Shown here piece by piece: positions 3,350 through 22,169 of a DNA stretch of 64,000 nt (within the stretch, counting starts at the first letter, position 1; every line of letters begins with the position of its first letter). The stretch is from an uncultured Gammaproteobacteria bacterium. GTDB lineage: Bacteria > Patescibacteriota > Patescibacteriia > UBA9934. The position numbers and the translations under genes are program-made. The stretch is taken from assembly GCA_964599455.1 (NCBI GenBank), contig CAZREA010000001.1, positions 353,829 to 417,828 of the forward strand, written 5' to 3'. The notes beneath the pieces are model-generated. The model searched no databases, was not told where the DNA came from, and worked only from the letters and a program-made list of their open reading frames with translations.

Positions 3350-4684
3350 ATGCAATCAAAAACACTTCTTACCGGCGTTGGCGCTATCGCACTAGCCGCA
3401 ATTTCATCGTTTGGAACCGTTTGGTACCTCGACTATCAATCAAAAGTACCAACAGATTCATCAAACAAACAAACGGCTCACTCAAACGATGCCGATATAT
3501 TAAATAAAGAAGATACCCCTTACGCCACCATGCTTGCTTTCCAAAGTAGTCAGGGTTTTATGGGAAACAAAAAAGCTGAAGAATACGCAACGGAAAATGG
3601 CTGGTATGCCTTTACAAAAAGTGAATATTACGAAACATTTTTAAAAAATCTTACAAAAGCACTTTCTGATAATGCAAAGCTCGTGAAAGAGAGTGGTGCT
3701 TCCATGAATCGTGATATTGTTGGTGCTTTTACTTGGAATGTAAGCGAGCCTATACAGGGAACCTATGACTGGACGATCCCTGATATGACCATGTTCGCCG
3801 CAGGTGAAGCCGAAGTCTACGAACTTGGCGTTATTCAACCCTTTGCATCCTGGGCAACAACCAATGAACTTAATCCAGAAAATTGCCAAGGTATCGATTT
3901 TATCTACCATGATTTCAAGGGCGGTCTCCCAAAAGGAACCTCTCTTGAAAATTATAAAATCTGGCTGCAGACTATCGTTGAACGGTACGACGGAGATGGT
4001 ATCGACGACATGGATGGCCTTAAAACAAAAGTATCTGCATGGGAAATCGGCAACGAAATTGAAGGAATGTGCCATGGGTCAACCCTCACTGCAGAAGAAT
4101 ATGCAGACTTCCTTGCGATATCTGCAGAAACCATCAAAAAAGCTGACCCCGATGCAATCGTCATGAATGGAGGGGCGTTGGAAATTGTTGGCGGAAATGG
4201 CCAAGAAATTCCTGAGACGATTACTTTTTGGAAAGCCTTTTTTGCCGCCGATGGCGCCGATGCGCTCGATGTCTTCAATCTTCATTACAATACCGAACGC
4301 TCGGGATCATTATCGTCGACCGATAACTGGAAAAATCTCATCTCGTTCTATCGCGATCTTCTTGATGATGCAGGTAGAGAAGATGTAAAAATCTGGGCAA
4401 CGGAATTTGGAACGTACAGCGGGACACCTAGCTCTCCAAATAACGGCGGTGCGACGATCCAAGTACCGACAGGTATGGAAAATGCTGGCTCAAAAACACA
4501 AAGCGAATCTTTTCAAACGTCGTGGTTTGAAAAATATATCGCTCTTGGCGAAGAATATAATGTAGAAAAATACTTCATCGATCTTATTGGTCCCGACAAC
4601 AGTACGATTGGTGGATCAGCGATATTTAGCGCACAAAGTAGAGAAGCACGCCCATTCCTGAAAGCCTTGCAAGCCATGGAGTAA
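3350..4684 (+). CDS. Glycoside hydrolase, clan GH-A (GH5-like) with N-terminal membrane anchor/signal
   Basis: The track ORF starts inside the tRNA, so the plausible start is MQSKTLLTGVGAIALAA at 3350. It contains SAWEIGNEIEG (acid/base region) and WATEFGTYSG (nucleophile region), typical of (beta/alpha)8 clan-A hydrolases. Confidence 0.55.
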   Translation: MQSKTLLTGVGAIALAAISSFGTVWYLDYQSKVPTDSSNKQTAHSNDADILNKEDTPYATMLAFQSSQGFMGNKKAEEYATENGWYAFTKSEYYETFLKNLTKALSDNAKLVKESGASMNRDIVGAFTWNVSEPIQGTYDWTIPDMTMFAAGEAEVYELGVIQPFASWATTNELNPENCQGIDFIYHDFKGGLPKGTSLENYKIWLQTIVERYDGDGIDDMDGLKTKVSAWEIGNEIEGMCHGSTLTAEEYADFLAISAETIKKADPDAIVMNGGALEIVGGNGQEIPETITFWKAFFAADGADALDVFNLHYNTERSGSLSSTDNWKNLISFYRDLLDDAGREDVKIWATEFGTYSGTPSSPNNGGATIQVPTGMENAGSKTQSESFQTSWFEKYIALGEEYNVEKYFIDLIGPDNSTIGGSAIFSAQSREARPFLKALQAME

Positions 4685-13356: not shown

Positions 13357-13363
13357 ACGCAAA

Positions 13364-13389
13364 CATGATACCCCCTAGGGGGTATCATG
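13364..13389. promoter_or_regulatory. Perfect 26-bp palindrome CATGATACCCCCTAGGGGGTATCATG, candidate CsoR operator
   Basis: It lies immediately upstream of csoR-copA. The TACCC-N-GGGTA core resembles CsoR boxes described for Gram-positive copZA operators, as recalled. Confidence 0.5.
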
Positions 13390-13421
13390 TTAAGAGGCAA
13401 AGTGGATAGCGATTGTTCGGT

Positions 13422-14327
13422 TCAAAAAATAGAGTTAATGGGATTCTTTTCGATACTTGCATGAACCTGCTTTTGGTTGACTTGGGTGTAAATCATGGTG
13501 GTCGTTATTTCTTTATGACCAAGCGCCCGTTGAACGGCGAGAATATCATTGCTCCCCACATATGTTTGCGTGGCGAACGTATGACGGAACTTATGGGGTT
13601 TAATCCGTATACCCGCTCGCTCCCCAATGAGCCGAGTAAGGTGTTTGAGGCCGTTTACCGTGAACCGAGTTCGACCATGATAGGAGACCCAGAGCCAAAC
13701 TGTTTCTACTTTCCGCTTGTCTCGTTCACGCAGGTATCGCTCAAGAAGTTCACGAAGCCGAAAACACATCGGCACAGAACGTGCGGAGCGGCTTTTAGAT
13801 GTTTCGGCTCGGACGCGGATGACGCAGTTTTCCCAATCGAGATCGGTGAGCTTGAGGTTCAGGAGCTCCCCCTTCCGAAGCCCGGCCATAGCCATGACAC
13901 CGAATAAAGCTACATTACGGATACGTTCAAAGTCGGTTTTGGCGCACATGTTAACGTGGTACATGATCGTCTCCATTTCCGTTTGCGAGTAATACTCTGG
14001 CAAGTTCTTCATGAGGGGTGGAACTGGAATGGTATCGAGCGGATTCATGGCCAGATGCCCACGATTAACACACCATTTGAAGAAGGGCGCGAGGTTTTTA
14101 CGGTACGAAATGATTGTCGCTGCCTTCCAGCCACGTTCGCGTTCTCCGCGAATAAGAAACTGCCGCAAAATACCTTCCGTCAACTCGTCAGTTGTTTTGA
14201 CAGGAAATAATTTCAATAGCAGGCGAAAGCTCTCATGGTAGCTTTGCATCGTCGCATCCGAACGACGCGCGAGGGTTCCGTCCTCGCACTCGCGGATGAA
14301 CTGGTTGTGCGCCTGCTGTACATTCAC
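13422..14327 (-). CDS. Tyrosine recombinase/integrase (XerC/D-like)
   Basis: C-terminal catalytic region HKFRHTFAT...LGH...Y with R..HxxR..Y spacing. Confidence 0.8.
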   Translation of the reverse strand: MNVQQAHNQFIRECEDGTLARRSDATMQSYHESFRLLLKLFPVKTTDELTEGILRQFLIRGERERGWKAATIISYRKNLAPFFKWCVNRGHLAMNPLDTIPVPPLMKNLPEYYSQTEMETIMYHVNMCAKTDFERIRNVALFGVMAMAGLRKGELLNLKLTDLDWENCVIRVRAETSKSRSARSVPMCFRLRELLERYLRERDKRKVETVWLWVSYHGRTRFTVNGLKHLTRLIGERAGIRIKPHKFRHTFATQTYVGSNDILAVQRALGHKEITTTMIYTQVNQKQVHASIEKNPINSIF

Positions 14328-14331
14328 AAAA

Positions 14332-14670
14332 TTATTTCATTTCCCACCCGCGCTTTGCGGCAAACTCTTGGCTAATGTCATAAACCATCTGCCAGAGACG
14401 GTCGTCACCCATAAGCTCCACGATGAGCTCCTCCATTTCCGCATCTCCAATTGCAACTCCGTAGTAATCCCGGAAATGAAACCAGAAAGATTCGATAAAG
14501 TCGTACGAAAAGAATTGCTTGCGATCTGGGTGCTCCAAATACATTTGGCGATCTCGCTTTTCGGCTTTATCCGCTCTTGCAAGCATCTCTTCAAATTCTG
14601 GCTTCTCCATATGCTCAAGGGATGCCTGTACCTCCGCCTCCGTCGCCGACTGAATGTTCTCTTGGTTCAT
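14332..14670 (-). CDS. Hypothetical protein (between two recombinase genes)
   Basis: 112-aa acidic ORF, spaced 4 to 14 nt from its neighbours. Confidence 0.4.
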   Translation of the reverse strand: MNQENIQSATEAEVQASLEHMEKPEFEEMLARADKAEKRDRQMYLEHPDRKQFFSYDFIESFWFHFRDYYGVAIGDAEMEELIVELMGDDRLWQMVYDISQEFAAKRGWEMK

Positions 14671-14684
14671 ATCATTTGGGGTTA

Positions 14685-15845
14685 TTAGTTATTTGCTGAC
14701 ATTGCTTTCACGATTTGTGCGATGCGGGCTAAATCTTCCTCGCCAAGAACCGGCTTGGCCTGTAGTGATTCGGGGTCAATGCCGCTTAGCAATTCAATCT
14801 GTCGCTCCTCATCGATCTTGCCGTACCCGTACGAACCGAATGTCGTTGAAACGTGTTCGTGGCCGAGGTTTTGGCTGATTGCCTTTTTCTGCTCCTCGGT
14901 AAGCGGGATTTTCATGAACTCTTTGACGACAAGGTGACGGAATGTGTGAGGATGAAAGTACGGCACTCCGGCGGCCTTGAATCGCTTCTCAAAGATCTTT
15001 CGCGCTGAACTGCTCTTCTCCCAAAATTCTTGGTTAACCTCCCCCGAACTGTAGTAACTGACGTTTTCTTCACCTTGCTCGATTTTTGTTGCCGGGAAGA
15101 TGGGGTCGGTTGCCGCGTACCCTTTCTCGTTCACGAGATAGTCGTACCAACTGAGAAAGTATTCTTTTGGTTTGTCGTATTTGAGCGGGAAGAGGGCTGT
15201 GGTGATGCGTTTGGCGTACTTCGTTTTCACACCCAATGACGGGTCTTGATCGACAACGAGGTCGTCACGATCAAATGCACCGATGGGAAGACTGACGATT
15301 GCCGATATGCGAGCGCCTGTCAGGAGCGAGAAGGAGATCAGTGCCCTGTCTCGACGGTCAACCTCGGTTATTGGCTCGATGAACTCTATGACTGTCTGAA
15401 CCTGCTCAATCGTTGGAATTTTGCGCCGCCCGGACTGACGTGCTTGTCGGCTCTCCTTCTTTCCGAGATTCAGGAAGTCGATGTCGGTTATCTTGATGCT
15501 TTGCTTGTAGGCATCCTGCTCGGCAAGCCACCGGAAGAACGCCTTGAGCTTGCGTAGCGTGTGGTACTGGTATGACACGCTCAGCTTCTCATCCCCTGCG
15601 CCATCACGATCGGCGAGCCAACTTTTGAACTGCATGGCGTTCGCTTTGTTGAACGACCGGAAATCTTCATCGTGCGTAAATTCCTGCCAACGAAGGAGCG
15701 CCTTCTCGTAGGTCTCAATGCTGTTTTCGGCATACCCACCCGAGGCACGTTGATAATCGAAGAAGCGACGCTTCATGATCTCGTTTTGGTAACGAATTTC
15801 CTCGTGGGATTTGCCTTTGATTTTGTCTTCGATGAATTCACTCAT
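14685..15845 (-). CDS. Phage-type tyrosine integrase with N-terminal SAM-like/core-binding domain
   Basis: HPHTFRHLVVKE...LGHEHVSTTFGSYGY. 386 aa. Confidence 0.8.
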   Translation of the reverse strand: MSEFIEDKIKGKSHEEIRYQNEIMKRRFFDYQRASGGYAENSIETYEKALLRWQEFTHDEDFRSFNKANAMQFKSWLADRDGAGDEKLSVSYQYHTLRKLKAFFRWLAEQDAYKQSIKITDIDFLNLGKKESRQARQSGRRKIPTIEQVQTVIEFIEPITEVDRRDRALISFSLLTGARISAIVSLPIGAFDRDDLVVDQDPSLGVKTKYAKRITTALFPLKYDKPKEYFLSWYDYLVNEKGYAATDPIFPATKIEQGEENVSYYSSGEVNQEFWEKSSSARKIFEKRFKAAGVPYFHPHTFRHLVVKEFMKIPLTEEQKKAISQNLGHEHVSTTFGSYGYGKIDEERQIELLSGIDPESLQAKPVLGEEDLARIAQIVKAMSANN

Positions 15846-16291
15846 ATAGTCGTGTTGGGTGGTGATCGATTAATCCCTTTGGGAGATGTACGAAGGAATC
15901 GGCGCATGATCGTGTTGCAACGTCCGCAATGAGCGACATATTGCAATTGATCTTGGTTGTCTTTGCCGACTTTTTTGCCGGTCTTTTCTGTTCGTACTTC
16001 TCTGAGATCAACCCGTATCGCTTCGTGACACTTGAGGCAGTACAGCTCATCCGACTTCAGCTTCACTTCATGGCTCTTTCGCCGCTCACGCAGGAAGGCG
16101 ATCACCGTCTCGCCGTAAAAGAGCAATGGATTTGTATCTGACCTAATGGGCTGTAGACCTTCTTCAATCCATCGATAAACCGTCCCTCGGGTCGCCCCTA
16201 ATCGATCGGCGATTTCCTGTGGCGTATACGTTCGACGCTCCCTGATAATTCGGAGGTTATAGTTGCGCATAGTGGTAGAAGTTAGTTCCAC
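15842..16291 (-). CDS. Excisionase-like HTH DNA-binding protein with C-terminal zinc-ribbon
   Basis: HTH YTPQEIADRLGATRGTVYRWIEEG plus CLKCH...CGRC. The gene overlaps the integrase start by 4 nt. Confidence 0.5.
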   Translation of the reverse strand: MELTSTTMRNYNLRIIRERRTYTPQEIADRLGATRGTVYRWIEEGLQPIRSDTNPLLFYGETVIAFLRERRKSHEVKLKSDELYCLKCHEAIRVDLREVRTEKTGKKVGKDNQDQLQYVAHCGRCNTIMRRFLRTSPKGINRSPPNTTI

Positions 16292-16626
16292 CAGCTCTGC
16301 CCTAGCGCTCCCCGGATTCGACCTTTGACATCCCGAACCGTTGCCCAGAATCGTATCGGCTCCACGATGATCTCTCCCGAGAACAATTGACCCTGTATTT
16401 CCTCAAGCTCTTTAGAGGACACAAAAACTGCCACGGCACGGCGTGGGTTGATAGGATCAGATTCAAATGCCTTGATGGGGATCTCGCGGTAGGCGAGAAC
16501 ACAGATCAAAATAAACTCCGAGGTCTTGAATAGCTTCTCTTTGGATTTCATACAGTCATCTTTTTCATATTGCTTACCACCCCATTTCATCAAAAACGGA
16601 TCACTTAAAATAAGCAGAAACCCCAC
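16282..16626 (-). CDS. Hypothetical protein
   Basis: 114-aa ORF overlapping the next gene by 10 nt. No motif recognised. Confidence 0.35.
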   Translation of the reverse strand: MGFLLILSDPFLMKWGGKQYEKDDCMKSKEKLFKTSEFILICVLAYREIPIKAFESDPINPRRAVAVFVSSKELEEIQGQLFSGEIIVEPIRFWATVRDVKGRIRGALGQSWWN

Positions 16627-16697
16627 CTGCGGAATAACAAAAAAGAGCCGAATGTCCGGGCTCTTAAAAAGTTATCCCCGCTTTAAGTAGAGTTAAG

Positions 16698-17501
16698 TTA
16701 AGCAGTTTTATTTCGACGGGTTTGAAATGCTTTTTGAGTTAAGACTTCCACCGATACCTTGAAGACGACGAAATCGTAGTCCCTCCCAAGAATCTGGGTG
16801 AGCTCATGTTTTCCTTTCGTATAAAGAGGGCACCGACCGTTGGTATTGAAGTAATCCAAAGCTCCTCGAATATCTTGATGACGGAAGCGTTCGCCTTCAG
16901 CGATACGGATCAAGAGATCCCAATACTTTCCATATTTTACCGAAAATGCCCCTGCATAGTTGCCGTTCACAACCACAACTACCTCTCCCTTGCTCCGATC
17001 GGGCAAAAGACCAAGTTGTTGGATCGTTGAATTACAAATATCTTCGTCCTCGTTTTTTGTAGGTTCTCCATCATTTACGCGCCCATCGTTAAGATGTTCC
17101 GCAACCATGAGCGCGATATCCTCCTTGTCTTGCCACCCCATCCGTCGATTGGAAACAATGTACGGAAGGGTTTCTTGTTCTTCTAGGATGTTGGCATACA
17201 GGCCCCCGAATTGCGTGGGTTCGAGAACGGGCAACTGGGGAATTTTTAACACCGCAGTCGCTTGCTCGCTTACTCTCTGAAGTATTTTGTAAGAATCGAT
17301 GATTCCTGAAAAGTTTATCGCTTCAGATATTTGCGTTGCAGTTTTTTGAGCAACGGTCATCGCGCGAGCAATCTGATCAAACTGGCTTTTATGGGCATCG
17401 ACAAAATCCTGAATCACTTTCTGAGATTCAAGGTATGGCTGCATCATTTTTTTCATCTGGCTCTCAACGGCCGGGAGAGCATCTGAATCTAATTCGCTCA
17501 T
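16698..17501 (-). CDS. Hypothetical protein (element cargo)
   Basis: 267-aa ORF with no recognisable domain. Confidence 0.45.
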   Translation of the reverse strand: MSELDSDALPAVESQMKKMMQPYLESQKVIQDFVDAHKSQFDQIARAMTVAQKTATQISEAINFSGIIDSYKILQRVSEQATAVLKIPQLPVLEPTQFGGLYANILEEQETLPYIVSNRRMGWQDKEDIALMVAEHLNDGRVNDGEPTKNEDEDICNSTIQQLGLLPDRSKGEVVVVVNGNYAGAFSVKYGKYWDLLIRIAEGERFRHQDIRGALDYFNTNGRCPLYTKGKHELTQILGRDYDFVVFKVSVEVLTQKAFQTRRNKTA

Positions 17502-17639
17502 ATCGTCATCTTATCTGGGACAAAATTACCAGAAAAAACTGCACTTTTCAATTTGAAGCATGGATAAGCTTGGAGTTGCTTACCCTCAAAAAGTAAGGTA
17601 TTATCTCGGCACAACACCTAAACCCGACCAGTATGGTTG

Positions 17640-17803
17640 GGCATGGTTAAACACCTACACGACTGAGACGGTCTTCCGACTGGCACTTATTCGTGTAGGG
17701 CCCTATTCCGCAAGGATAGGGGGTTGTTGCCGAAAGGCGCAGCCGTCAGCTCGGGGGACCTTTTGAGTTTCCCGAAATCTAATTAACCCCTACACGAATA
17801 CCT
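17640..17803 (+). promoter_or_regulatory. Candidate structured 5' leader/cis-regulatory RNA with mutually exclusive pairings
   Basis: CCTACACGA (17654-17662) and CCCCTACACGA (17787-17797) can each pair with TCGTGTAGG (17691-17699). Between them are hairpins CCCTAT-UCCGCAAGG-ATAGGG and GCC-GAAA-GGC (GNRA). The second CCTACACGA ends 7 nt before the ATG at 17804. Confidence 0.3.
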
Positions 17804-18382
17804 ATGTCGCACGATACGACAGGGACCAAGAACTGGTTCGCCAGACACAAGATACTTAGCGCACTCGGAGGCCTCGTTCTCTTTTTCATAATTATTGGAG
17901 CGGTTTCAGGTGGCTCATCTGATACAAGCTCCTCAAGTGGCTCCTCTGGCTCCAATACCGGCCAACAGAACGCGCCTGCGGCTTACACGCTGAACGATCA
18001 AGTGACCGTGGGCGATGTAAAGTGGGTCGTGACCTCTGCTACGTCCAAAGCTTCGCTTGCGGGAGCGTTTGGCGGAACGGAAACCACCCAAGGAAAATTT
18101 GTGGTGATCAATGTGACTGTTGAAAATCTCGGGAAAGACATGAAAACCATGTCGAACCTAAAATTGGTCGATAGCCAAGGCCGGGAGTTTACGAGCTCTT
18201 CAAAGAGCTACAAGAACCTTGGAGCGGATCAGCTCTATATCCTACAAAACTTGAATCCCAATCTACCGTACACCTTCGCTGATGTGTACGAAGTGCCCGC
18301 CGACGCGGAGGGCTTCTCGGTAGTGGTCGGGGATCTGACCTTCTTCGGAAATAACGAAGCTAACATTGGCCTCGGTTTCTAA
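17804..18382 (+). CDS. Membrane-anchored DUF4352-like (Ig-like) domain protein
   Basis: N-terminal TM helix, Ser/Gly linker, then VGDVKWVV...GKFVVINVTVENLGKD...LKLVDSQGREF pattern resembling DUF4352. Confidence 0.45.
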   Translation: MSHDTTGTKNWFARHKILSALGGLVLFFIIIGAVSGGSSDTSSSSGSSGSNTGQQNAPAAYTLNDQVTVGDVKWVVTSATSKASLAGAFGGTETTQGKFVVINVTVENLGKDMKTMSNLKLVDSQGREFTSSSKSYKNLGADQLYILQNLNPNLPYTFADVYEVPADAEGFSVVVGDLTFFGNNEANIGLGF

Positions 18383-18400
18383 ACCGAAGTGCTCATATAG

Positions 18401-18428
18401 AAAACCTCCCAAAAAGGGAGGTTTTCTT
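18401..18428 (+). terminator. Rho-independent terminator
   Basis: AACCTCCC-AAAAA-GGGAGGTT followed by TTCTTG. Confidence 0.55.
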
Positions 18429-18460
18429 GCTGTACGAATGGCCCTCTGATTGGTAAGCTC

Positions 18461-20788
18461 ATGTCAATTATGATGACAAATGCCTCTCTGAAATACAGGC
18501 CCGTCAGGATCGGTATGCTCGTTAACGAGGGCTCGATTGACGAACTTATTGCCGCCGCAAGTTGGAACAGTATTTTGTGGGGCGGTCTTTACAACCCAGT
18601 CATTCCCTGTGGAGCTAATCAGGAATTAACGCAGAGTTTGATGGAGCTATTTTCTGTTGACGTTCTCTATGCTGTAGGGAAATCAAAAGTGATCACGAAG
18701 GTAATGAACGACCACCCTTTTTTGAGAGAGCAGAGGCATATAGAGGGTCTATTTCATGAAGAAACAGCTCCACGCACAAGAGAGCGTGTTTTAGCTCCTA
18801 CATACCTCAGTTTAAAAGACATCGCTGACTACTTCTGGTACGAAGAGATGCGGCATAAGGATTCCTCCTACAAGAGCGACTTCATCCATCATACATGGGA
18901 ACAGAATGACGATCTGAATGGGTTGATGTCGATGATGTACGGGCGCATACCAAGTGCAGGTTCAGTACCCTTCAAATACTCATTCGACAATATCTTTTTA
19001 AACGGCTTACGAGCTGATTCTTCGACGGTCAAGATTGGCGACCCAATACCTGAACAAGACAAATTTTCGATCATTCAAGCCACGCAAGCACTCCTTCGAG
19101 AACACGGGGATGGTTTCTATCGAAATGGAGGGGGTGTTTATATTGGCTCCCATACCAGTTTTAACGACCTCCTGACTTTTTGGAACTTGCGAGCTTCAGG
19201 TATTGACGTTGCATTCTTTTCGACTGACGCCACAGATAGGACGTTAGGTGCCGCAAAAACACAACTCGATCGTGTTCGTAAAAGGTCGGAGGATACAGAA
19301 ATGCCCTTTGCGGCGTACCCCACCGTCTACCATCAGATTGACGATAAGGATTCAATTGATGCTCATATAAAGCTTCTGTTTTCCGAGGAGGAGAAAAGGG
19401 TGATTCATCACGTCTCGGATCATTCTTGGAACGGTCATAACATTCGGCCCGCGACTTGTAGCTTTTCTTGGGAACAAACAAGTGGAAGTGCAAGCTTGAC
19501 GAATGAGCAGCCAAGCGTGCGTTTTCAGTTACCTCCTATGGACTTCTTACGAGGTCGCGAGGATCTTGATAGCTCAACACTTGCGGTTGATGTTGATGTC
19601 TATTTTGAAGGTGATTACGAGAAACATACCCTCAAGCCCCCATATCTTCGGGGCCTAGATGAATTTTATAGAAGGGGCATACATTTTTCGCCCTTTGGTC
19701 TGCGGGTGCATGGAGGGGGTATTTCATTGCTCGTTGAGACAAACGATCATGATATCCGCCTAAACCCACTTTCAAAAATTGAAACTGTCCACAAAATTTT
19801 TGATCTTGTGGGGCTGCGATCGAAACCAAGCCAGCCGGGTATTGTTGCGCAAAAAATCATTGATCATTTCGGTGGCCTTGAAAAGTTAAGACCCCTTAAG
19901 TTTGATGGGGTGAGAAAATTACTCGAATCCTTAGAGCCGGAAGATACAGTCACGAGGGGACGGGCGACACAAACAATCCATGAATCTAATTTGACGAGAC
20001 ACAGGTTCCTTTCTTCTGCATCAGAGGGAATCAATGCCTCAGAAGTTTTTAACGGGTTGCTCAAGCAACAAGTGTTTAGGCCGGGCTTAGAGCTTACCTG
20101 CGCGAGCTGTACGCTCACCAGCTGGTTTTCACTCGCCGAGTTGGATGACGAGTGGATTTGCAGATATTGCGCCGCAAAGGAACTTACAAGCATTCAATTA
20201 GGGAACCGGGGTGACTGGAAGTTTAGGAAGAATGGTCTCTTTGCGAGGCAAAACAAGCAGGATGGCGCAATCCCCGTCATCTTGACGTTGTTGACCCTGA
20301 ATAGGAGATTCCACGACGGGAAGTTGCTCTGGCTGACGAACACTAAACTCGACGGTGATGGGGTGGACTGCGAAAGCGATTTTGTTGCTATCGTTAAAGA
20401 TAGTAGATCGAGCAAACTAGAAATTTGTATCGGGGAGTGTAAGAGTGGAGGCGGTGAAATCAATCAAGAGGATTGCGACAAGCTAACCGCCGTCGCAGAC
20501 ACGATCAAGAAAAACGATCAGCTTGATTGTTGCATTCTCTTTGCAAAGACGGCTGAAGATTTTACGGATACTGAAAAATCCTTGTTTAAGAGTTTGATTG
20601 AAAAAGGTTACCGAATTGTTCTATTCACCAATAGGGAGCTGGAGCCCTACGAACCTTACTGGACTGACGGAAGTGGAGAAAATCTCCCACAGAAATACGC
20701 CCACTCGCTGGAGGACTTCTCGGCCAATTCACGAGCCCGGTACTTATCCGATCCTGAAGCTAGCCCACAAAATTCAACGGGTGCTTAG
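18461..20788 (+). CDS. Large uncharacterised protein with internal CxxC...CxxC zinc-ribbon and C-terminal PD-(D/E)xK-like nuclease motif
   Basis: 775 aa. CASCTLTSWFSLAELDDEWICRYCAA (zinc ribbon). C-terminal DGVDCESDFVAIVKD...LEICIGECKSGGGE gives a D...ExK pattern. No NTPase motif seen. The 3' end overlaps the convergent integrase gene by 29 nt. Confidence 0.55.
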   Translation: MSIMMTNASLKYRPVRIGMLVNEGSIDELIAAASWNSILWGGLYNPVIPCGANQELTQSLMELFSVDVLYAVGKSKVITKVMNDHPFLREQRHIEGLFHEETAPRTRERVLAPTYLSLKDIADYFWYEEMRHKDSSYKSDFIHHTWEQNDDLNGLMSMMYGRIPSAGSVPFKYSFDNIFLNGLRADSSTVKIGDPIPEQDKFSIIQATQALLREHGDGFYRNGGGVYIGSHTSFNDLLTFWNLRASGIDVAFFSTDATDRTLGAAKTQLDRVRKRSEDTEMPFAAYPTVYHQIDDKDSIDAHIKLLFSEEEKRVIHHVSDHSWNGHNIRPATCSFSWEQTSGSASLTNEQPSVRFQLPPMDFLRGREDLDSSTLAVDVDVYFEGDYEKHTLKPPYLRGLDEFYRRGIHFSPFGLRVHGGGISLLVETNDHDIRLNPLSKIETVHKIFDLVGLRSKPSQPGIVAQKIIDHFGGLEKLRPLKFDGVRKLLESLEPEDTVTRGRATQTIHESNLTRHRFLSSASEGINASEVFNGLLKQQVFRPGLELTCASCTLTSWFSLAELDDEWICRYCAAKELTSIQLGNRGDWKFRKNGLFARQNKQDGAIPVILTLLTLNRRFHDGKLLWLTNTKLDGDGVDCESDFVAIVKDSRSSKLEICIGECKSGGGEINQEDCDKLTAVADTIKKNDQLDCCILFAKTAEDFTDTEKSLFKSLIEKGYRIVLFTNRELEPYEPYWTDGSGENLPQKYAHSLEDFSANSRARYLSDPEASPQNSTGA

Positions 20789-21713
20789 TCATCTGGCCAC
20801 GCAAATGCTCAACGGAGGCCGACAGGTAGATTGTGGTGGTTTTAATGTCGTTATGCCCCAGCATCTTGGAGAGGGAGTAGATATCACAGCCGCCTTCGAT
20901 CATTAGCGTGGCGAAGGTATGTCGGAGCATGTGGATGTAGAAATCTGTCCCAGAGGCCTCAATAATGCGTTCAACGAGACGTTTAAGGCCGGAGTCGGTG
21001 AATCTCCCATCCCGATTCAAAGAAACGAAAAAGTACATGGTCACTTTGTGAAGCCGCTCTCTTTCGGAGAGGTACTTTTGAAGTATGGCAATGAGCTGAA
21101 ACGGCATAGGGACCACGCGATCTTTATTGCCCTTGCCTTGCCGAATACAGATCACCATATTCGTCAGATCCACGTCGGTCATCTTCAGCGTGAGCAATTC
21201 GGTCTTACGAAGGCCACAGTACAGAAACATGGCAAACATGGCGTGGTTGCGGTAGCGAAGAAAAGCATTCGGATACGGCAGACATGCAGCGGTTTCGATA
21301 AGCGTCAGCGCCTCCTGTTTGGTAAGGCGCTTCGGGAGGTTTTTGTCTTGTCGCGGTTTCTCGATTTGTTCAAAGGGATTGTCGATGACAAAGTTTCGCT
21401 CCTTCGCCCACTTGAAGAAGACGTTTAGTCGCTTGTGGTGGGTAATGAAGGTGCTTGGCGTCCACTTTTTTGTTGACCTCCCCCAATAGAAGAATTTTTG
21501 AGCTACCAAAAAAGACACCTCATCAATGCGCTCTACTTCAGGACATGCCTGCAAGAACGTTCTGAGTGTCTCTCGATAACTCTTTACCGTCGTAGGACGG
21601 TAATTCCTGATTGTTTCCTGATACTGACAAAAACTCTCATGGAGCTCTGCGATCTTCATATTCATCTCATTTAGAGCGGAATATGGATCGAGTATCCACT
21701 TCAGGTGGTTCAA
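20760..21713 (-). CDS. Tyrosine integrase adjacent to tRNA-Thr attachment site
   Basis: HMLRHTFATLMIEGG...LGHNDIKTTTIYL. Confidence 0.8.
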   Translation of the reverse strand: MNHLKWILDPYSALNEMNMKIAELHESFCQYQETIRNYRPTTVKSYRETLRTFLQACPEVERIDEVSFLVAQKFFYWGRSTKKWTPSTFITHHKRLNVFFKWAKERNFVIDNPFEQIEKPRQDKNLPKRLTKQEALTLIETAACLPYPNAFLRYRNHAMFAMFLYCGLRKTELLTLKMTDVDLTNMVICIRQGKGNKDRVVPMPFQLIAILQKYLSERERLHKVTMYFFVSLNRDGRFTDSGLKRLVERIIEASGTDFYIHMLRHTFATLMIEGGCDIYSLSKMLGHNDIKTTTIYLSASVEHLRGQMTKHPLNFVG

Positions 21714-21735
21714 TACGAGATTAAGCCATCTGAAG

Positions 21736-22014
21736 TGGAGCCACAGACCGGGATTGAACCGGTGACCTCATCCTTCGTTTACACCTCTGCTTTCTAGGGC
21801 ATATCAGAGGGCTAGACTGTATCTTGAGCTTTCTCTTGCGAGGGAAGCTCCCCTTGTCAGTCGTTCGGGCGTACGCTTTCGCGTTGACGCCACGGTCTTG
21901 ACCTTGCCGGGTCTTTAACCGTAATTCGGGATTCAATCCTGCATTTCTGCGAGGAGGGGCAGGAGACATTACGTCCCACCATGGATGCGCTCTACCAACT
22001 GAGCTACTGCGGCA
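21736..22014 (-). tRNA. tRNA-Thr (anticodon GGU) interrupted by a 202-nt putative group I intron after anticodon position 36
   Basis: Exons (reverse complement) GCCGCAGTAGCTCAGTTGGTAGAGCGCATCCATGGT | AAGGATGAGGTCACCGGTTCAATCCCGGTCTGTGGCTCCA join into a canonical 76-nt cloverleaf with anticodon loop AUGGUAA. The spliced sequence equals the contiguous sequence seen in the fragments at 8563..8609 and 22130..22169. Confidence 0.6.
21777..21978 (-). ncRNA. Putative group I intron in tRNA-Thr anticodon loop
   Basis: The 5' exon ends in U and the intron ends in G. There are R-like (GAACGACUGACAAGG) and S-like (CAAGAUACAGUCUAGCC) elements with a 5-bp P7 (GACUG/CAGUC). A P8-like hairpin (GAGCUU...AAGCUC) and a P9-like hairpin (CCUCUG...CAGAGG) are also present. 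No ORF inside. Confidence 0.45.
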
Positions 22015-22129
22015 TGAATTGTTTGGCTCCGACGGCCACTTCCACGGGGGATGTGGTCGTCTGATTTTTGTTTTCTTGATTTCTTCTTTTACATTAGCGT
22101 GAAACCGCGTTTCTAGGGTAGACCGCCTC

Positions 22130-22169
22130 CTTACCATGGATGCGCTCTACCAACTGAGCTACTGCGGCG
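22130..22169 (-). pseudogene. 5' fragment of tRNA-Thr(GGU), positions 1 to ~41, ending at the 11-bp core (element right junction)
   Basis: Identical over 36 nt to the 5' exon of the intact gene. Sequence upstream of the core is unrelated to tRNA. Confidence 0.55.

Follow-up and report, generated by a model that had tools for sequence, protein, structure and literature searches.

A third segment complementary to stem P2 of LOOT RNA recurs beside the start codon of the next gene, a possible translational switch

The structured leader of a DUF4352 gene in a 64,000-nucleotide stretch of DNA (the whole of which is called the window here) is a member of the LOOT RNA family, RF03000, and the 3' arm of its long stem P2 (A') has two possible partners, the usual 5' arm (A) and a third segment (A2) placed directly before the start codon. 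This third copy is neither a matter of chance nor specific to the window locus, as it recurs, each time matched to the P2 of its own locus, in about one in six of the LOOT loci that we collected. The best reading of these data, to which we give an even chance, is that LOOT is combined here with a cis-acting translational switch on the next gene.

As to the identity of the leader, an Rfam scan of the whole window, a check that the first-pass annotation had proposed, returned RF03000 (LOOT RNA) at 17615-17744 on the plus strand, with 52.3 bits (E 5.6e-7), above the gathering score of 46.4. The match is full-length (model positions 1-121 of 121), and LOOT was the sole match to the region of the leader when Rfam was searched at a permissive E-value. 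The CCUAAAC ... GCAUGG internal loops of P1 are present, as CCTAAACC at 17617-24 and GGGCATGG at 17639-46, in columns that are invariant in 21 aligned LOOT loci. P2 of the window possesses an outer stem of 9 perfect pairs and an inner part with several non-canonical pairs in the Rfam alignment, and this long stem is followed, as is characteristic of LOOT, by two GNRA-capped hairpins, P3 (GCAA) and P4 (GAAA), which account for the tight hairpins, one of them with a GNRA loop, that had been noticed between the repeats from the sequence alone. The isolated 164-nt RNA is predicted to fold into exactly the P2, P3, and P4 helices, with a folding z-score of -5.35. LOOT was described in the supplement of a 2017 paper (Weinberg et al., 2017; PMC5737381), it is composed of six helices, of about 43 bp, with many cross-covariations (Rivas, 2020; PMC7657543), and it is typed by Rfam as an sRNA gene. 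In the literature that we searched, a function for LOOT was not found, nor was any paper joining Patescibacteria, noncoding RNA, and riboswitch. The coordinates of the features are collected in Table 1.

Table 1. Elements of the LOOT locus in the window (positions are those of the window)
Feature	Position	Strand	Description	Basis
Putative LOOT promoter	17576..17604	+	-35-like TTGCTT (17576-81), 17-nt spacer, -10-like TATTAT (17599-604)	read from sequence
LOOT RNA core	17615..17744	+	P1, P2, P3, P4 as in Rfam	RF03000
P1	17616..17647	+	invariant CCUAAACC (17617-24) and GGGCAUGG (17639-46)	
A	17654..17662	+	5' arm of LOOT stem P2, CCTACACGA	
B	17670..17679	+	GGTCTTCCGA, apical part of P2; complementary to B', ten pairs	read from sequence
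A'	17688..17700	+	3' arm of P2, TATTCGTGTAGGG; shared strand for A or A2	
P3	17701..17721	+	hairpin, GCAA (GNRA) loop	
P4	17722..17744	+	hairpin, GAAA loop	
B'	17751..17764	+	TCGGGGGACC (17751-60), then UUUU (17761-64); LOOT 3' tail outside the Rfam model	
B2	17767..17775	+	GTTTCCCGA, decoy for B' (9 pairs, local hairpin)	hairpin in predicted folds
J'+A2	17785..17800	+	AAC + CCCTACACGAATA; LOOT linker and P2 5' arm copied; covers -16..-4 of the start codon	
DUF4352 gene	17804..18382	+	DUF4352-domain membrane-anchored protein; start region under the A'–A2 helix if formed	

To our knowledge, LOOT has been known only from marine metagenomes. When one genome per GTDB species was scanned with the pattern CCTAAACC-N10-16-GGGCATGG-N1-4-AAA, at least 119 loci were returned, and about 95 of the 119 GTDB matches listed possess the complete LOOT architecture (nhmmer). 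To judge by their record titles, the LOOT matches listed belong overwhelmingly to metagenome-assembled genomes (MAGs) of Patescibacteria/CPR (Saccharibacteria, Gottesman-, Doudna-, Uhr-, and Kaiserbacteria, Paceibacterota, and others), while the matches to the pattern listed from other phyla in the same scan are without the LOOT structure. In the JGI metagenomes the same pattern was met on 120 contigs, 104 of them with LOOT. All of the 20 loci that were re-tested pass Rfam's own LOOT threshold, at 52-94 bits. Viral contigs were considered as carriers of LOOT and discarded, as none of 120 matches to the P1 pattern had the architecture and most were matches in coding regions. The set analyzed below consists of 167 distinct LOOT loci among the matches listed, 84 from GTDB and 83 from metagenomes.

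In the window, the three segments lie where the first-pass annotation had placed them, with one strand having two possible partners: CCTACACGA is found on the plus strand at 17654-17662 and again at 17789-17797, and its complement TCGTGTAGG at 17691-17699, these being the 3 occurrences in all of the 64 kb, against 0.24 expected and with none of 100 shuffles reaching 3. The downstream pairing is stronger than had been described. By a repeat finder, TATTCGTGTAGGG (17688-17700) and CCCTACACGAATA (17788-17800) are complementary at 13 of 13 positions, whereas A' pairs with the upstream arm over 14 nt at 86%, with 9 perfect pairs; A has diverged at its own 3' end, and A2 retains the AATA that faces TATT. 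The downstream copy had been said to end 7 nt before the start codon; CCCCTACACGA ends at 17797, with 6 nt left before the ATG at 17804, and the complement in its full length of 13 nt reaches to 17800, with 3 nt left. The open reading frame that begins at this ATG, the first possible start, encodes 192 aa with a match to Pfam DUF4352 (E 3.3e-12), and, as had been remarked before, no Shine-Dalgarno (SD) sequence is visible ahead of it. The first codons of the gene (17804-17830, ATGTCGCACGATACGACAGGGAC) form a small hairpin with a weak likeness to the interior of LOOT P2 (local alignment score 23), which may be a trace of the origin of A2 or may be due to chance. Two loci from other species (L124 and L237) are syntenic with the window (recombinase, HTH, small ORF, a protein of ~267 aa, LOOT, DUF4352), their DUF4352 orthologues, in the same position, being 88-91% identical; in both, all three segments are identical to those of the window, while the spacer and the P1 loop differ. 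The nearest relatives among the matches listed, L124, L265, L301, and L309, stem from Hainich wells.

To find such third segments elsewhere, the best ungapped complement of A' was sought within 120 nt after the U run that follows B', with a cut-off score of at least 22. This search, with cross-locus controls, was adopted because RNAduplex runs of the whole LOOT against its flanks, since dropped, did not discriminate between own and foreign flanks. Among the matches listed, A2 is present in 14 of 84 GTDB loci (0.76 expected from the cross-locus controls) and in 12 of 83 metagenome loci (0.45 expected), thus in 26 of 167 loci overall (~16%), against an expectation of about 1.2. In the upstream flanks, used as a further control, 2 of 84 loci reached the same cut-off and none the next. 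In all of the 26 A2-type loci the segment lies 158-180 nt from the start of LOOT, its end is almost always 0-9 nt before an ATG, and an A-rich stretch like the LOOT linker precedes it; no further copies of A2 were found elsewhere in the LOOT loci.

The A2-type loci possess 20 distinct 10-nt P2 cores, and the A2 of each matches its own P2. In a plain MAFFT alignment, the variable stems of the extended loci fell out of register, and pairs were therefore counted on 10-nt blocks set in the pairing register, together with the constant linkers. Across 20 loci with different P2 sequences, A' and A2 are 99.5% paired, with compensatory changes in 10 of 10 pairs, against 35-44% paired in slid registers, counts that are inflated by the choice of the register with the best pairing and for which the cross-locus control corrects in part; an unbiased test is given by the cross-locus controls of the search for A2. 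A'–A2 has a covariation score of 1.23, where shuffles give 0.21 and none of 500 attains the observed value, and the figures for canonical P2 (A–A') are equal to those for A'–A2. A2 is sometimes a better partner for A' than A is, as in L160 and L155, where A makes a G·U pair and A2 a Watson-Crick pair. Thus both things whose absence from homologous leaders was to count against the first-pass reading have been observed: the segments are conserved, being identical in L124 and L237, and the third of them covaries with P2 in 20 loci.

A second set of alternative pairings involves the sequence that follows P4. A long-range helix between B and B', scoring at least 22, is found in 125 of the 167 loci among the matches listed, versus 19.6 expected from cross-locus pairings, and, judged from the complementarity, B–B' and P2 together would form a pseudoknot. 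The TTT columns after B' show little or no variation among 21 aligned loci, and B–B' followed by the U run looks like an unconventional terminator. B2 has its counterparts 2-10 nt after the U run in many loci: a B'–B2 stem scoring at least 20 is present in 68 of 167 loci (~40%; matches listed), against 19 expected, and, at a score of at least 16, in 24 of the 26 A2-type loci versus 81 of the 141 others. In one locus (L179), B2 (CCCTCCAGCT) has a choice of two partners, B' and a downstream SD (CTGGAGGG). Because B2 precedes A2, J-A-B has not simply been repeated in tandem in the extension, and a simple tandem duplication is disfavored as the origin of A2; the order found is the one that a nested alternative fold calls for. 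An origin at the level of DNA, through duplication or recombination, is nonetheless likely, since A2 is largely a direct copy of linker and A, even if the copy is now kept by selection.

The strands follow each other along the RNA in the order A, B, A', P3, P4, B', UUUU, B2, J', A2, AUG, and two competing folds can be drawn from them. In the canonical one, P1, P2 (A–A'), P3, and P4 would be joined by the pseudoknot of the apical loop of P2 (B) with the 3' tail (B'). In the alternative one, the nested decoys B2 and A2 would take B' and A', respectively, resulting in a four-way junction in which A'–A2 closes P3, P4, and B'–B2. For a 219-nt transcript of the window, the minimum free energy (MFE) structure computed with ViennaRNA (-86.3 kcal/mol) keeps P2, while the centroid is the four-way junction; with A2 blocked the energy is -86.3 and with A blocked -85.4 kcal/mol, a difference of 0.9. 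Over 25 A2-type loci the median difference between the folds is +0.9 kcal/mol (range -4.7 to +9.6), and the alternative fold is the MFE structure in 7. By these energies, which exclude the pseudoknot, the two folds are predicted to be near-equal. The pairings are mutually exclusive and one of them would occlude the start region, as in an expression platform, though the form with A2 is found in only 16% of the loci.

The switch that we propose would operate as follows. LOOT would be transcribed from its own promoter, and the transcript would read past the U run into the gene. Whenever the canonical LOOT fold is stabilized, B2 and A2 would be left free, the start region open and the gene translated; otherwise positions -16 to -4 relative to the DUF4352 start codon, which has no SD, would be buried in the A'–A2 helix and the start region would be sequestered. 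In this scheme we infer the read-through of the U run, the co-transcription with the gene, the effect on translation, and both the existence and the nature of a trigger. A complementarity that is independent of sequence, fixed in position, nested, and spread across many lineages points to RNA base pairing on one molecule. As 84% of LOOT loci are without A2, switching of this kind is not the core function of LOOT. Against the switch, an efficient B–B'/U-run terminator could leave A2 only rarely on the same molecule, and the typing of LOOT as an sRNA by Rfam could speak in the same direction.

The gene context of LOOT resembles that of a leader. Among the matches listed, the downstream gene is co-directional at 140 of 154 loci (91%), its start lying at a median of 42 nt after the U run; at 103 of the 140 it is within 75 nt, and at 44 loci within 30 nt, which is too close for a separate promoter. 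The start codon may be as near as 2-12 nt after the U run (L220, L222, and L131 are examples), and in these cases the start region would be covered by B–B' itself. At 106 of 156 loci, the gene upstream of LOOT is divergent. A TATWAT box is found within 60 nt upstream of P1 (mostly at 25-30 nt) in 58 of 165 loci, versus 12 of 159 in a control interval. With a close co-directional gene downstream, a divergent gene upstream, and a -10-like box, LOOT stands at the head of transcription units. The promoter boxes of the window are conserved in L124 and L237, and transcription likely starts near the CACAA at 17610-14. A simple scan for consensus promoters and terminators called no promoter and no canonical terminator hairpin, the putative LOOT promoter of the window being missed because its -35 box matches at only 3 of 6 positions. 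A (C)ACAA(T) motif (17610-17614 in the window) is conserved in most LOOT loci, 8-17 nt upstream of CCUAAACC and 3' of the -10-like box; transcription probably starts there, and the RNA would then possess a short 5' extension beyond the Rfam model. The first-pass annotation had seen in the leader the topology of a riboswitch or attenuator, and this topology it read correctly. Its interpretation is supported in part: the strand alternatives, the covariation, B2, the near-equal energies, and the tight co-directional spacing are all in its favor, while the notion of an anonymous leader has to be given up in favor of LOOT, with its own -10-like box, a tail, and a U run.

As to the genes themselves, both flanks of LOOT abound in genes of mobility and defense. 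Those downstream of LOOT are heterogeneous (a variety of small membrane proteins and zinc-ribbon proteins, with two reverse transcriptases among the rest), and they share no pathway that would point to a ligand. The upstream neighbors (n = 75) include 7 large serine recombinases, 5 MerR-type regulators (4 of them HTH_17), and Abi/toxin-antitoxin genes. The A2-type loci present a more specific picture. Their 18 non-redundant downstream proteins comprise 6 N6_N4 DNA methyltransferases, 2 Eco57I-type restriction-modification (R-M) enzymes, 2 SNase nucleases, 1 VRR-NUC/HNH protein, and the 1 DUF4352 protein of the window; methyltransferase, R-M, or nuclease genes are thus downstream in 11 of 18, versus at most 1 methyltransferase in the 61 A2-negative loci scanned, and genes for methyltransferases and nucleases behind A2 would fit a need for tight control. 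From these observations one may go further and tentatively propose, while holding it somewhat more doubtful than probable, that LOOT is not a trans-acting sRNA but an orphan sensor domain heading transcription units of Patescibacteria, and that the B2/A2 strand-exchange platform has been repeatedly recruited to it to gate the translation of R-M methyltransferases, nucleases, and envelope proteins. Such a sensor domain, in the reduced, episymbiotic bacteria that are its hosts, might be a riboswitch or else an RNA responsive to a protein or to another RNA, a suggestion that we make with the same reserve.

The first-pass annotation had stated that no partner enzyme is adjacent to the repeats; this proved incorrect, as three tyrosine recombinase genes (13422-14327, 14685-15845, and 20760-21713) lie within 4 kb. 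They are part of an 8.7-kb block (~13424-22168) that consists of two tyrosine recombinases, an HTH_17 protein, a small ORF, a 267-aa protein, LOOT, DUF4352, a 775-aa protein, the third recombinase, and a tRNA-Thr. The block is syntenic with L124 and L237, with the exception of the gene for the 775-aa protein, absent from L237, and its flanks, a P-type ATPase on the left and a Memo-like protein on the right, are unmatched within the sequence available there; the block as a whole may be mobile. The tRNA-Thr(GGU) gene (21736-22013, minus strand), adjoining the recombinase at 20760-21713, carries a 202-nt insert after position 37, and was found by ARAGORN with introns allowed, having been missed by ARAGORN at default settings and by Rfam; no group I intron was matched by Rfam in the insert. 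An exact second copy of the 36-nt 5' half of this tRNA stands 155 nt from the first (21978-22013 and 22133-22168). The outer of the two continues like a fragment of an intron-less tRNA, and L237 possesses both. The gap between the genes for the P-type ATPase and the first recombinase is occupied by a perfect 30-nt palindrome (AACATGATACCCCCT/AGGGGGTATCATGTT, 13362-13391).

Similar observations can be made for LOOT loci elsewhere. A large serine recombinase (Resolvase + Recombinase + Zn_ribbon_recom) adjoins LOOT in L148, L225, L173, L192, L128, L130, L238, L175, and others, and upstream ORFs of 425-445 aa fitting such recombinases lie on the opposite strand, with starts mostly ~90-140 nt ahead of LOOT. 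An arrangement of this kind suggests that integrative elements use LOOT or its promoter region for attachment. One contig (L121) carries two convergent LOOT copies (3618-3765 on the plus and 4267-4412 on the minus strand). L231 and L228 each have, ~10 nt downstream of LOOT and on the opposite strand, a gene for a reverse transcriptase (Pfam RVT_1). In L224, two identical truncated 5' parts of LOOT (P1, linker, and the 5' arm of P2), 898 nt apart (at ~889 and ~1787), are each followed by an ORF resembling a NYN-domain protein, with a complete LOOT, whose P2 pairs poorly, downstream at ~3862; the truncated copies may be the footprint of recombination within LOOT.

Given such surroundings, the repeats could be seen as products of recombination or partial duplication, with the LOOT gene serving, like a tRNA gene, as an integration hot spot and with A2 being an att core or a scar of no function as RNA. 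The three tyrosine recombinases about the locus, the 7 large serine recombinases and 5 MerR-type regulators among 75 upstream neighbors elsewhere, the variable cargo downstream, the truncated P1-J-A copies fused to ORFs in L224, the copying of the unpaired linker along with A, and the tRNA-Thr with its 36-nt 5'-half duplication are all consistent with this. The geometry, however, is not: the distance between the copies is always about 120-140 nt, and what they flank is the remainder of LOOT and in no case an island; a further copy at the far end of an island, as an att site would have it, is missing from these loci; integration at J-A predicts a split LOOT or a J-A-B... remnant and not a complete LOOT followed by J-A2 and ATG; and B2 before A2 reverses the order in which A and B stand. 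Decay would also be expected of a scar, yet A2 is fully complementary across ~20 sequence types and fixed beside the ATG. An att site or island boundary was thus rejected as the main explanation of the repeats, on account of the missing further copies and the unfit geometry, and the recombination scenario as a whole appears quite improbable to us. Chance has nothing in its favor other than the shortness of the repeat, and a 9-mer present 3 times versus 0.24 expected, a perfect 13-nt complement, and 26 of 167 loci against about 1.2 expected leave it with a negligible probability.

Two further explanations grant A2 a role in RNA. LOOT may be a terminated, trans-acting sRNA, with A2 as its antisense target on the neighboring mRNA, in the manner of a type-I antitoxin or of a cis-encoded pair of sRNA and target, so that pairing of A' at the start region of a separate or a rare read-through mRNA would repress it. 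The sRNA class assigned by Rfam, the promoter-like box of its own, the GC-rich helix followed by a U run, and the position of the complementarity across the translation start region, with targets that in many cases are nucleases or methyltransferases, classes commonly under antisense control, would all suit such an RNA. But in the free RNA A' is locked in a stable P2, the 10-40 nt from the U run to A2 leave no room for a separate promoter, the pairing of B2 with the tail of LOOT is sensible only on the same molecule, and the 64-kb window holds no other site complementary to A'; we thus consider an action in trans unlikely, if less so than any of the other alternatives to the switch. Finally, J'-A2 could mimic the junction of J and P2, so that a factor recognizing or cleaving LOOT there, be it a nuclease or, with A' as guide, LOOT in the role of a ribozyme, would likewise act on the mRNA leader, processing it immediately ahead of the start codon. 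The copying of the A-rich linker along with A, the fact that A' is the sole element able to “read” both of the variable segments, and a compact pseudoknotted core with invariant single-stranded nucleotides may hint at it. This proposal is purely inferential, A-rich leaders are general in A2-negative loci too, and we know of no cleavage activity for LOOT, all of which makes it a rather remote prospect, more so than recombination.

Overall, the analysis places LOOT at the heads of transcription units in a very large and poorly understood bacterial radiation, adds a pseudoknot and a 3' tail to its structure, and links the A2 variant to genes for DNA methyltransferases and nucleases. Should the switch fail, the finding is one more copy of a known orphan motif. 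The covariation of three strands leads to a concrete and mutable hypothesis, namely that the choice of A–A' versus A'–A2 governs the start site. If this is true, LOOT would join the small number of regulatory RNAs known from CPR bacteria, with a new design of expression platform.

When set beside LOOT as defined in RF03000, the window locus shares the invariant CCUAAAC/GCAUGG of P1, the long variable P2, and the two GNRA hairpins, while the Rfam model ends at P4, without the B' tail, the U run, and the B2/A2 extension found here; and in place of the sRNA of Rfam, the loci analyzed here resemble a 5' leader (91% co-directional genes, at a median of 42 nt), widespread in MAGs of Patescibacteria. 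As far as we have found, the literature searched describes neither the covarying strand-swap extension of LOOT, nor its B–B' pseudoknot, nor its leader-like context. With the integration sites in tRNA and tmRNA genes, LOOT has in common a conserved small RNA gene, integrases with variable cargo, and short direct repeats of a part of the RNA gene; it differs in that its repeats are ~130 nt apart, enclose only the 3' part of LOOT, and bracket no island. The trp and erm attenuators, with their 1:2, 2:3, and 3:4 pairings, present a similar chain, B–B' versus B'–B2 and A–A' versus A'–A2, and the B2 of L179 is a further link of this kind in pairing with the SD as well, but the LOOT locus is without a leader peptide, and in its alternative fold a four-way junction takes the place of a row of neighboring hairpins. 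There is also a likeness to the platforms of translational riboswitches (the add adenine riboswitch, SAM-II, and preQ1-II), in which a conserved pseudoknotted domain is likewise followed by exclusive helices sharing one strand, one helix lies over the translation start region, and the two states are near-equal in energy. In SAM-II and preQ1-II, the 3' strand of the pseudoknot overlaps the ribosome-binding site. We know of no ligand or trigger for LOOT, and, unlike in metabolite riboswitches, its downstream genes are heterogeneous (methyltransferases, nucleases, envelope proteins) and a minority of the family possesses the A2 platform; where translational riboswitches sequester an SD, the window locus would sequester an SD-less start region, through a strand that LOOT otherwise employs in its own stem P2.
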